From: Akkermansiaceae bacterium
Lineage (GTDB): Bacteria > Verrucomicrobiota > Verrucomicrobiia > Verrucomicrobiales > Akkermansiaceae
Length of the DNA: 64,000 bases
Assembly: GCA_025457665.1 (NCBI GenBank)
Contig: JALOTY010000005.1
Coordinates: 4,316 to 68,315 of the forward strand
Direction of reading: 5' to 3'
Shown: positions 26,642 to 29,289 of the stretch, in pieces
Layout of the letters: each line of letters begins with the position of its first letter
Position numbering within the stretch: position 1 is the stretch's first letter
The notes under the pieces: generated by a model
The model's input: only the letters and a program-made list of their open reading frames with translations
Databases searched by the model: none
What the model was told of the DNA's origin: nothing
Made by a program: the position numbers and the translations under genes

Positions 26642-27007
26642 TTAGACCGCCTTGCTTTTCAGAAAGGCGACCGCGGCGGCGATCCATGAGGCGATGATCA
26701 GCACGCCACCCACCGGAGTCACCGGGCCCAGGAAGGAAACGTTTTCTAACAGACAGAGCAGATAGATGCTGCCGGAAAACAGCAGCACGCCCGCCAGCAT
26801 GGTCCATCCCGCCCGGGTCAATCCGGCCTGGGCGAGCACCAGCGCGGCGATGGAGTGGGTCAGATGATAGAGCACGGCGGTATCGAAGGAGTCCACATGA
26901 CCGGCCTTTTTCAGAAAGTCATGAAGCGCATGGGCCGCCAGCGCGCCAAGGCCCACGGAGAGGGCGGCGGAAAGGGCGGCGGCAGCGGCGAGGGGACGTG
27001 ATTTCAT
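26642..27007 (-). CDS. DUF423 (YgdD/TMEM256-like) membrane protein
   Basis: Start MKSRPL at 27007; GALAAH, TAVLYHLTH, LFSGSIY, GPVTPVGG. Confidence 0.88.
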   Translation of the reverse strand: MKSRPLAAAAALSAALSVGLGALAAHALHDFLKKAGHVDSFDTAVLYHLTHSIAALVLAQAGLTRAGWTMLAGVLLFSGSIYLLCLLENVSFLGPVTPVGGVLIIASWIAAAVAFLKSKAV

Positions 27008-27358
27008 GCCCCGGACGCTATCCGGCCCACCCGCGGTAGGCCACGGAAGTTTTTCGGAAATCCCCGCCCGGCCGACCCCGGGAAATGCCCATCCCCACCG
27101 ACCCAACCCGGCCACTTCCCTCCATTTCAGGCCCTCTCCCCCCCTCAAAGTACACTGCCATCCCCTTGGCTGAGGCAGAGTACACCGGAAAAGCACCCCA
27201 ACACCCGAAAACCCCAATTTGGGCCCTCTTTTCCAAAATTTTGGGCGGTTTTCGCCCGATTTTTTATCCCAGTACACCGCGAATCACACCAAAATACACC
27301 GCGCTAATCATTGACAATCAAATGGTTAAAATTTTGTTTGGGGTCATTAGATTTTTAC

Positions 27359-27387
27359 TTGCGGATTCTGGTGTACTCCGGTGTAAT
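27359..27387 (+). promoter_or_regulatory. Candidate sigma70 promoter of the dcw operon overlapped by GGTGT direct repeats
   Basis: TTGCGG (27359-27364), 17 bp, TGTAAT (27382-27387); GGTGT at 27370 and 27380; lies in an AT-rich block upstream of mraZ. Confidence 0.5.
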
Positions 27388-27422
27388 TCGGGAGTCGTCA
27401 GCAGCGACGACGCCCTTTTCGA

Positions 27423-27875
27423 ATGTCGGCCAACGCCAAACCACTGGAGAGTCACTACGACTACAAGATGGACCCGAAGTATCGGGTTTCCGTCCCGGTG
27501 GATTACCGTCCCGACGGCGAGGGGTCGGCGCTTCGCCTGCATTCCCACAAGGAACACGGTCTTCCGGTGATCAAGGTCTACACCTCCGAGATCTTCGATG
27601 ACAAATACCGCCAGATCCGCGAGTCGGAGCTTCCGCAGGCGAAAAAGAACTCCCTCGAAGGCGCCCTGCGGATGCACTCGAAAGTCGCGACCATCAACCC
27701 GCAAGGCAAGCTGTCGATCCCCAAAGACTGGGCCGAGAAAATCGGCCTCAAAGCGGACGGCCCGGTGAAACTGGGTGGCCGCGGACACTATTTCATCATC
27801 TGCAGCGAAGAGACCTTCGACCGTCTCGAGGAAATCGAGAACAACATCGACGACGACGGCCTCGGAGTTCTCTAA
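27423..27875 (+). CDS. mraZ: Division/cell wall cluster transcriptional repressor MraZ
   Basis: Two SpoVT/AbrB-like halves (KMDPKYRVSVP; INPQGKLSIP), 150 aa, first gene of the dcw cluster. Confidence 0.85.
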   Translation: MSANAKPLESHYDYKMDPKYRVSVPVDYRPDGEGSALRLHSHKEHGLPVIKVYTSEIFDDKYRQIRESELPQAKKNSLEGALRMHSKVATINPQGKLSIPKDWAEKIGLKADGPVKLGGRGHYFIICSEETFDRLEEIENNIDDDGLGVL

Positions 27876-27921
27876 ACCGAAACATTTTCACCCAACGAAC
27901 GACAACATGCTGTTCGCCCTA

Positions 27922-27991
27922 CCAACCTCGGCATCCGGCCACACCCGTCCGGAAGCACCCACTTCCGCGATGGCGCGGATGTCGGGGTTGG
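27922..27991 (+). ncRNA. Candidate structured RNA element (long hairpin) in the mraZ-rsmH interval
   Basis: 27922-27937 pairs with 27976-27991 over 16 bp, including two G-U pairs, and encloses CGGAAG/CTTCCG (27950-27955/27962-27967) with a 6-nt loop. Confidence 0.55.
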
Positions 27992-28021
27992 GCGTTATTT
28001 TCCTGCCATGGCCCGAAGCTC

Positions 28022-28332
28022 TCGGGACAGCGCTGCGCGCCATGGCTCACAAGACGGTTGTCCGCTCCGGTTTCCATGGCTGGTTTGCGGGGCGGACGCC
28101 GGTGATTTTCCAGGCTGAGCGGAAGGAACCCATCGGGACAGCGGTCCTTTCGCCAATCAACCCGCGTGTCCGTGCCGGTTTCCATGGCTGGTTTGCGGCA
28201 CGGACCGCGGAAATTTTTCCAAAGAAAACTCCCTCACCGCCAATCGGGACAGCGGCGGCGTCGGAGTATCGCAAAACGGTTGTCCGCTCCGGTTTCCATG
28301 GCTGGTTTGCGGAGCGGACGCCGGTGACTTTC
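28022..28332 (+). repeat. Three ~111-bp tandem units, each with TCGGGACAGCG and a covarying hairpin with an invariant 18-nt loop
   Basis: TCGGGACAGCG at 28022, 28133, 28244; hairpins at 28060-28097, 28168-28205, 28282-28319 with loop GTTTCCATGGCTGGTTTG. Confidence 0.92.
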
Positions 28333-29289
28333 ATGTCGGCAGCGGGCGATGCCGCCCTGCCCCACTACCACCTGCCCGTCCTGCCCCGCGAAACCGCGAG
28401 CTGGATGAATGCCGGTCCGGGCAAATTCATCATCGATGGCACCCTCGGAGGAGGCGGCCACAGTGAAGCCATGCTCGAAGCCGGAGCCCGCGTCCTCGGC
28501 GTCGATCGCGACCCCGAGGCCATCGCCCACGCCAGCCGCCGACTCGAACGCTTCGGCGACCGCTTCCAAAGCTGGCAGGGAAATTTTGGAGAACTCCATT
28601 GCTACCCCGAGGTTCAGGGGGGAGAGCTGGCCGATGGCCTGCTTCTGGACCTCGGGGTTTCTTCTCATCAGCTCGATGACGCCTCGCGCGGATTTTCCTT
28701 CATGCGTGAAGGCCCGCTCGACATGCGCATGGGCCCGGCCAGCCGGATGACGGCGGCCGATGTCGTGAATACCTACGCGGAAAGCGACCTGGTCCGCATC
28801 CTTCGCGAGTATGGCGAGGAACCCCAGGCCCGCCGGATCGCCGCCGCCATCGTCCGTCAGCGCGAAAAGACCCTTTTCGAAACCACCGCCGATCTCGCCC
28901 AGTGCATCGAGCGCGCCATCGGCCGCAGCGGCAAGACCCACCCCGCCACCCGTGCCTTCCAGGCCATCCGCATCGAGGTGAACGATGAGTTCGGCTCCCT
29001 CCGCAGCGCCTTGGAAAAGGCCGATCGACTCCTCAAACCCGGAGGGCGACTCCTCGTCATCACCTTCCACAGCCTGGAGGACCGGATGGTGAAACAGTTT
29101 TTCCGCGACCGCTCGCGAGAGTGGATCGACCAGCCCGAATGGCCGGAACCCCGGCCGAATCCACTGCGAACCTTCCGGCTGCCACAGCCCAAGGCCATCG
29201 CCGCCAGCCCCGAAGAAATCCGAACGAACCCCCGGGCCCGCAGTGCAAAACTGCGGGTCGCCGAGCTTCTGGACCCCAAGCCCCGCTAA
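28333..29289 (+). CDS. rsmH: 16S rRNA m4C1402 methyltransferase
   Basis: HLPVL, IDGTLGGGGHS, GVDRDPEA, LDLGVSSHQLD, GPLDMRM, HPATRAFQAIRIEVN, ITFHSLEDRMVK, NPRARSAKLRV. Core start ATG 28333 gives 318 aa; the frame is also open upstream to ATG 27907. Confidence 0.93.
   Translation: MSAAGDAALPHYHLPVLPRETASWMNAGPGKFIIDGTLGGGGHSEAMLEAGARVLGVDRDPEAIAHASRRLERFGDRFQSWQGNFGELHCYPEVQGGELADGLLLDLGVSSHQLDDASRGFSFMREGPLDMRMGPASRMTAADVVNTYAESDLVRILREYGEEPQARRIAAAIVRQREKTLFETTADLAQCIERAIGRSGKTHPATRAFQAIRIEVNDEFGSLRSALEKADRLLKPGGRLLVITFHSLEDRMVKQFFRDRSREWIDQPEWPEPRPNPLRTFRLPQPKAIAASPEEIRTNPRARSAKLRVAELLDPKPR

Follow-up and report, generated by a model that had tools for sequence, protein, structure and literature searches.

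The rsmH gene heads the dcw (division/cell-wall) cluster and its product modifies the ribosomal decoding centre, and the regulation of the gene is poorly understood. In the window analysed here (the whole stretch of 64,000 nt from an Akkermansiaceae bacterium), a preliminary description of the sequence reported three tandem hairpins directly upstream of rsmH and proposed that they form a triplicated cis-regulatory RNA. The locus thus raises the question of what these hairpins are: whether selection acts on them as DNA, as RNA or through a peptide that they encode, and whether they lie in front of the gene or within it.

Anatomy of the hairpin array

Eight conserved stem-loops form a chain that occupies the first 153 codons of the rsmH frame: a start-codon hairpin, a long leader hairpin and three modules, each made up of hairpins P1 and P2 (Table 1). 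The three hairpins of the preliminary description correspond to P2. A sequence and repeat search placed their 10-bp inverted repeats, which enclose one identical 18-nt loop, at 28060-28097, 28168-28205 and 28282-28319. The arms are GTCCGCTCCG/CGGGGCGGAC in hairpin 1 (28060-28069/28088-28097, including one U·G pair), GTCCGTGCCG/CGGCACGGAC in hairpin 2 (28168-28177/28196-28205) and GTCCGCTCCG/CGGAGCGGAC in hairpin 3 (28282-28291/28310-28319). The 22-nt core GGTTTCCATGGCTGGTTTGCGG is present in three mismatch-free copies, for which the expectation from 100 shuffles was 0. In copy 2, a CT-to-TG change in the left arm is compensated by an AG-to-CA change in the right arm.

A whole-region minimum free energy (MFE) fold without a span limit pairs the repeats with one another and is misleading; a span-limited fold was therefore used. 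It agreed with the repeat search on the three tandem hairpins, and it also recovered the lower stems that had been proposed, which a bulged T sets off from the upper ones: CCGCG/CGCGG in copy 2 and CGGT/GCCG in the other two copies. On folding, the array region was more stable than every shuffle (z = -4.1). The sequence TCGGGACAGCG starts at 28022, 28133 and 28244, which confirms the exact 111-bp period noted previously; the hairpin-to-hairpin spacing is unlike this period, at 108 and 114 bp.

Table 1. Features of the mraZ-rsmH region, in coordinates of the window
Feature	Position	Strand	Basis or remark
mraZ (150 aa)	27423..27875	+	ORF; weak Pfam MraZ/AbrB-type matches; directly upstream of rsmH
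Start-codon hairpin CGAACG/UGUUCG, ATG 27907-27909 in loop	27896..27916	+	span-limited MFE fold
Full rsmH frame, 460 aa + stop; codons 1-153 = hairpin-encoding extension	27907..29289	+	open in 26/26 complete loci
Long leader hairpin, 16-bp outer stem with G·U pairs, inner CGGAAG/CUUCCG, loop CACCCA	27922..27991	+	RNAalifold
P1a, outer stem GCCAUGGC/GCCAUGGC, loop CUCGGGACAG (28021-28030)	28005..28046	+	fold
P2a (hairpin 1), lower stem CGGU/GCCG, loop GUUUCCAUGGCUGGUUUG	28055..28101	+	repeat search, fold
P1b, GCGGAAGGA/UCCUUUCGC, UCGGGACAG (28133-28141) in loop, UUCCAGGCUGAGCGG before	28119..28153	+	fold
P2b (hairpin 2), lower stem CCGCG/CGCGG, loop as P2a	28162..28210	+	repeat search, fold
P1c, ACUCC/GGAGU and CCGCC/GGCGG, loop holds UCGGGACAG (28244-28252)	28228..28267	+	fold
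P2c (hairpin 3), loop as P2a	28278..28322	+	repeat search, fold, A-type alignment
In-frame ATG, rsmH start of the preliminary description	28335..28337	+	not conserved (~10/26 genomes)
RsmH catalytic core, Pfam Methyltransf_5, residues 154-453 of 460-aa ORF	28366..29265	+	hmmscan E=5.9e-102

The repeat unit is not a single hairpin, as had been supposed, and consists of two, P1 (loop UCGGGACAG) and P2 (loop UUCCAUGGCUGGUU); the sequence TCGGGACAG that was thought merely to precede each hairpin is the loop of the covarying P1. A conserved single-stranded stretch, UUYCNNGGCUGGGCGG, precedes P1. A CCA/UGG mini-stem had also been proposed inside the P2 loop; it is missing in the B-type loops of more distant species (CUUCUGGCUGGUUG), and the loop of the window is invariant. 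Each P2 loop of this genome contains an AUG that is out of frame with rsmH and opens a 9-codon ORF in the +1 frame (28298-28327 and equivalents; MAGLRSGRR, with its stop at CCGGUGA); such AUGs might serve as decoy or standby starts.

Both the P2 loop and the 5' flank of P1 contain the motif AUGGCUGG. Three other genera have an in-frame AUG in the P1 flank, UUC-AUG-GCU-GGG-CGG, with the peptide FMAGR or FLMAGR (loci L173 and L170 of genus g50; L180, L183 and L188 of genus g22; L062 of genus g21), and internal initiation sites may exist in these genera. In genus g22 the last P1 directly follows the apparent RsmH start, and the last flank AUG lies 15 codons before the YHLPVLP core. The recurrence of AUGGCUGG, the flank AUG and the position of the last P1 in g22 suggest that in-frame tandem duplications of the beginning of rsmH enlarged the array.

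The stem-loops are selected as sense-strand RNA

BLASTN detected the array in 33 of the 34 other genomes of the genus Haloferula, and 126 hairpin units were extracted. Covariation of the stems, with 93-96% pairing, extends over about 30 Haloferula genomes and related genera. The stems of these units are very different in sequence yet paired, as exemplified by CCGCTCCG/CGGAGCGG, CCGTGCCG/CGGCACGG, CCGCCCCG/CGGGGCGG and CCGCACCGC/GCGGTGCGG, and likewise by CCGTCCTGC/GCAGGACGG, CCGATCCGT/GCGGATCGG, ATCCGCGCGG/CCGCGCGGGT and GGTTCGCGCAG/CTGCGCGAACC. Among 78 distinct A-type P2 units, 93.4% of the alignment cells were paired and 7 of the 13 pairs had changed on both sides; in slid controls, with the partner shifted by 1-3 columns, pairing was 29-67%. 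B-type P2 hairpins were 94-95% paired, with U-A/C-G and G-C/C-G exchanges, and P1 hairpins (52 distinct units) had 96% of their cells paired and both sides changed in 8 of 11 pairs. RNAalifold on 29 genomes gave 20 pairs in the leader hairpin (99% paired, 8 changed on both sides). Since repeats within a genome evolve in concert, independent compensatory events are fewer than these cell counts imply, and templated mutation in quasi-palindromes could yield some paired changes without selection.

Among the individual stems of the chain, the outer and inner stems of P1a covary in 29 genomes, and those at the position of P1c vary in sequence by species and retain their pairing. The sequence ACGAACGACAACATGCTGTTCGCC of the start-codon hairpin is almost invariant in the same number of genomes and, having no variation, gives no covariation signal; likewise, the invariant loops carry no covariation information on contacts.

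Non-Watson-Crick cells distinguish between the strands. G·U outnumbered A·C by 102 to 12 in the P2 hairpins, by 73 to 10 in the P1 hairpins and by 73 to 0 in the leader hairpin, and by 248 to 22 over all structures together. The selected object is therefore the sense-strand RNA, and neither duplex DNA nor an antisense transcript. The covariation and the G·U excess uphold the proposal of a selected RNA structure with invariant loops, freely covarying stems and true compensatory changes. A conserved peptide with broken pairing was also looked for, and the reverse was seen: pairing is kept and the encoded amino acids differ.

The reading frame runs through the array

The preliminary description placed the array upstream of rsmH; it lies instead inside a continuous frame. 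A conserved ATG (...DNMLFA...) at 27907, 31 nt past the mraZ stop, begins a frame that runs open into the RsmH core, and this is the only frame free of stops in 26 of 26 complete loci; the other five mostly have 1-10 stops per locus, and zero now and then. In a frame-agnostic search for GGNTGGTY, the true units all fell in one frame. Every spacing between units (105, 108, 111, 114, 123, 126 and 129 nt) is a multiple of 3. The same is true of the ATG-to-first-unit distance (165-174 nt) and of the tail between the last unit and the core, which takes at least nine different lengths between 117 and 153 nt.

The in-frame layout is also found in other genera, and an M-hydrophobic-x-x-x-P-T/S-L start just after mraZ is common even to genera with short extensions. 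Public gene calls include the extension in RsmH proteins of 394-536 aa. In a collection of 5.8 billion proteins it occurs in 13 clusters, all of them RsmH of that size range and some annotated as RsmH by NCBI. Since the frame is kept from the ATG at 27907 to the methyltransferase core in every genome, ribosomes would have to cross the array to make RsmH. From this conservation we infer that translation of RsmH starts at 27907 and passes through the hairpins.

A proposed cis-acting array of recognition sites and the attenuation alternative

The reading that we favour, with moderate confidence, is that the array extends rsmH at its 5' end, is translated and RNA-constrained, and works in cis on the rsmH mRNA, probably through repeated recognition sites for a trans-acting factor. 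Independent sites are preferred because the loops are invariant, the stems covary freely, the units are modular and the copy number varies. A protein or RNA factor would read the invariant P1 and P2 loops and thereby tune the translation or stability of rsmH and, via coupling, the downstream division genes ftsL and ftsI as well. Ribosomes moving along the mRNA would be in competition with folding or binding of the array, and the amino-acid sequence of the extension would for the most part follow from the RNA constraints. Presentation of a ligand-binding loop several times, as suggested in the preliminary description, is a plausible role.

A more specific scheme is put forward as a tentative proposal. 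The array would consist of as many as about 20 stem-loops in modular series, unwound by the very ribosomes making a ribosome-maturation enzyme. A trans factor reading the invariant loops would make the output of the 16S m4C1402 methyltransferase and of the downstream division genes depend on the capacity for translation. Within this scheme the factor might be free RsmH, or it might be the Arg/Trp-rich peptide repeats encoded by the array itself, by analogy with known pairs of Arg-rich peptides and hairpins.

Several candidate targets and partners were tried and rejected. For mimicry of 16S helix 44 (C1402), the 16S sequences came from closed Haloferula genomes (the assembly of the window is without 16S), and the best hairpin alignments were not at h44. 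The A_win, B_win, B_far and P1 alignments did not rise above shuffles; that of A_far was marginal (2 of 200 shuffles reached its score) and targeted 255-277, not h44. Complementarity of the hairpins to Haloferula 16S rRNA was confined to chance-level 7-mers. A CsrA sponge, suggested by the GGA within the GGGAC of the P1 loop, was set aside: none of 81 genomes of the family carried a match to PF02599, and the positive controls were detected. A switch in which the upstream GGGACAG pairs with the 5' arm of P2 (GCUGUCC) can be drawn for many A-type units; GGGACAG is the loop of its own covarying hairpin, and the alternative pairing is lost where the arm reads GAUUGCC and weak in B-type units.

A phylogenetic link to MraZ was also sought. 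Homologues of mraZ adjoin rsmH in 18 of the 20 genera of the family and the array is present in about 5, so that the profile is uninformative. Upstream of mraZ, the sequence GTACAC (GTGTAC on the other strand) occurs 4 times within 230 bp, out of 6 occurrences in the 64-kb window. The sites comprise AGTACACYG at 27150, 27180 and 27272, the related ATACACCG at 27294 and the inverted GGTGTACTCCGGTGTAAT at about 27369, and they are a candidate dcw operator or promoter repeat, possibly MraZ boxes. Between the upstream gene and the mraZ promoter region there is a terminator-like hairpin on the + strand (TTGGGCGGTTTTCGCCCGA then TTTTTTATCC, 27241-27269), and an 8-bp tandem repeat of ACCCCAAA lies at 27195-27217.

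The main rival to recognition by a trans factor is translation-coupled transcription attenuation, in which a GC-rich P2 followed by a U-run would act as a weak terminator or pause site unless a ribosome follows closely. In this way the array would sense how much translation capacity there is and determine the read-through into rsmH and the division genes, which would explain both the need for an open frame and the near irrelevance of the peptide sequence. In its favour are the established need for an open frame, GC-rich stems of 10-17 bp, and a run of T3-T7 that lies 2-5 nt after nearly every P2 (about 125 units) and is conserved as nucleotides in two codon phases. However, the U-runs are short (mostly 3-4 nt) and stand 3-5 nt off the stem, the extra pairs that would close the gap are not conserved, and UUUCC doubles as the conserved 5' flank of the next P1. 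A consensus terminator scan showed no enrichment (4 sites against 2.2 +/- 1.6 in shuffles), although the loop limit of the scan excludes these hairpins. A terminator role would also leave the invariant 15-18-nt loops and the P1 hairpins unexplained.

The trp and his attenuators rely on a small leader ORF of their own that carries regulatory codons, on alternative pairings and on a canonical terminator. The array resembles them in that hairpin formation would depend on the position of the ribosome, leader translation would be needed and the peptide would be unimportant; unlike them, its 'leader' is fused to the enzyme, it has no conserved alternative pairing and its U-runs are weak. On balance we regard attenuation as unlikely.

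Constraint on the encoded peptide

If ribosomes cross the array, the hairpins might be incidental or secondary to a functional Arg/Trp-rich protein repeat domain on RsmH, which could, for example, bind rRNA. The frame is indeed conserved, the G-W, L-G-T and R residues are invariant, and the extension is found on RsmH only. To this may be added a median dN/dS of 0.66-0.70, which is below 1, and third codon positions that vary somewhat more than the others. The corresponding dN/dS of the core is 0.14-0.16. In the far clade, the entropies at codon positions 1, 2 and 3 were 0.37, 0.40 and 0.52 in the extension against 0.23, 0.15 and 0.75 in the RsmH core; that is, the profile of the extension is almost flat, with a slight third-position excess.

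Other features of the extension point away from selection on a folded protein. Synonymous divergence (dS) is halved, with values of 0.32-0.38 for the extension and 0.62-1.08 for the core, and the blocks TTCCATGGCTGGTTG, CTCGGGACAGCG, TTCCTGGCTGGGCGG and CGGCGGCCG are frozen at all codon positions, the synonymous ones in the loops included, so that amino acids drift and synonymous sites do not. The residues encoded by the stems (S/P/T/A/I/F with E/G/V/A/D) swap non-conservatively as pairing dictates, giving RS..AE, RP..AG, RT..AV, RA..AA and RI..AV. Nearly no secondary structure was predicted for the extension, and AlphaFold2 gave a pLDDT of 25-32 for residues 1-154 against 70-92 for the core, both from a single 14-sequence alignment. 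Pfam returned Methyltransf_5 alone, with no domain before residue 154 of the 460-aa ORF.

The encoded peptide is thus weakly constrained and is predicted to be disordered, and a protein domain as the selected object is very unlikely. The dN/dS below 1 and the mild third-position excess leave room for some protein-level function, and the invariant G-W and L-G-T codons could serve the peptide as well as the RNA.

The alternative of an untranslated leader

A further alternative is that RsmH starts at or near 28335, so that the hairpins form an untranslated cis-regulatory leader and the open frame is incidental. The ATG at 28335, which the preliminary description took for the start of the rsmH core, lies 12-15 nt beyond hairpin 3 in a UUUC-AUG context, and structured rsmH leaders exist in Actinobacteria (RF01746; PMC3890552, PMC4046766). 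That start did not hold up in the comparison: an ATG is present at this position in only about 10 of 26 related genomes, and in four genomes (L008, L009, L011 and L014) ATG, GTG and TTG are all absent from the stretch that separates the last hairpin from the conserved YH(L/V)(S/P)VLP start of the core. It is the upstream ATG, with its context, that is conserved across genera; the indels are all multiples of 3, and the frame is free of stops in every complete locus. We consider this explanation, too, very unlikely.

The RF01746 mraW motif has been observed as a 5' UTR in Corynebacterium glutamicum (PMC3890552, PMC4046766). Positions 27000-29000 were searched on both strands against Rfam 15 with cmscan; at E<=10 there were eight chance-level matches and none to RF01746, and membership of the array in the actinobacterial family is rejected. 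The array, like that motif, is a conserved structured RNA that directly precedes the RsmH (MraW) coding core where the dcw cluster begins. The mraW motif is single, untranslated and actinobacterial, whereas the element described here repeats two hairpin types in tandem within the open frame from 27907 and, judging from the frame, is translated. To our knowledge, the actinobacterial mraW motif has stood without a mechanism since 2010 and is the sole comparable element.

Distribution and confinement to one locus

In the 4.68-Mb assembly from which the window was taken, a search for the loop motif with up to 3 mismatches found the three copies at the rsmH locus and none elsewhere. Covariance models were run with shortened calibration, which makes their E-values rough. 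The P2 model matched 38 of 201 genomes of the family, in 3 of 20 genera, and gave no convincing match beyond the family in 151 genomes of the order; the P1 model matched 4 of the 20 genera in the family sample and, among 301 genomes from 155 genera of the class, just those family genera and one marginal match. The array thus belongs to Haloferula and a few sister genera, about 5 in all, which form a sub-clade of one verrucomicrobial family. The number of modules per genome ranges from about 2 to 9, with at least 8 in genome G165.

Draft assemblies end inside the array in H. sargassicola (G021, contigs C27 and C34; locus L005) and in G028 (contigs C16 and C11). Because the array breaks short-read assembly, copy numbers from drafts are lower bounds.

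In every positive genome the P2 matches cluster at a single locus, rsmH. A repeat scattered genome-wide like a REP element, with no link to rsmH, had been named as a contrary outcome in the preliminary description; the matches lie at the mraZ-rsmH junction only, barring two weak or partial ones (G005:C12 and G027:C104), and REP/RPE-like dispersal is ruled out. A DNA-level feature or the relic of a mobile palindrome (MraZ operators, cruciforms or REP/RPE-like insertions without present RNA function) would suit palindromic, tandem units that differ in copy number by species and adjoin mraZ, but it is hardly credible and already largely refuted, as the G·U excess is meaningless for duplex DNA or the opposite strand, the arms covary rather than being conserved in sequence, copies elsewhere are limited to those two matches, and MraZ is far more widespread than the array. 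The readings as a 5' UTR, as protein only, as a DNA palindrome and as a mobile element are all contradicted.

RsmH homologues of Akkermansia, other Verrucomicrobia and one planctomycete have another conserved extension at the N terminus, about 55 aa long (RRxRYxGKNPRRFExKYKE...ASGKTPAG). These homologues have no mraZ in front (L120, L124, L125, L131, L142, L143 and L112) and may represent a distinct RsmH subfamily. As an explanation for the array they were rejected, the extension being unrelated and not beside mraZ.

Relation to other repeated elements

Rickettsia palindromic elements (RPEs) are palindromic units with lengths in multiples of three that lie in frame in conserved genes and are translated. 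The array resembles them as a set of in-frame palindromic units that add translated peptide. RPEs are dispersed over many genes, and we know of no evidence in them of selected RNA pairing or invariant loops; the array, unlike RPEs, is confined to one locus, probably derives from local tandem duplication and covaries strongly.

Protein-recognised stem-loops include the GGA-loop arrays of RsmZ/CsrB, the operator of phage MS2 and lambda boxB, which is bound by the Arg-rich N peptide. Invariant loops on covarying stems, the signature of sequence-specific protein recognition, are common to these elements and to the array, and the P1 loop contains GGA as the RsmZ/CsrB loops do. The known examples are non-coding sRNAs or single start-site operators, whereas ribosomes here would traverse more than 400 nt of coding sequence. 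The literature collection searched contained no paper naming both Haloferula and rsmH, and the rsmH hairpin array appears to be undescribed.

Implications

Bacterial coding sequences in which, across hundreds of nucleotides, selection bears more on the RNA fold than on the protein have rarely been shown. Arrays of hairpins with invariant loops are known from non-coding sRNAs and not from within the reading frame of an enzyme. The five genera, with 2-9 modules, two loop types and rich covariation, are convenient for mutational design, and the array is suited to questions that link mRNA structure, ribosome transit and the expression of cell-division genes. For the family itself, these findings suggest that the annotated 'domain' in RsmH proteins of 394-536 aa is probably RNA-driven.
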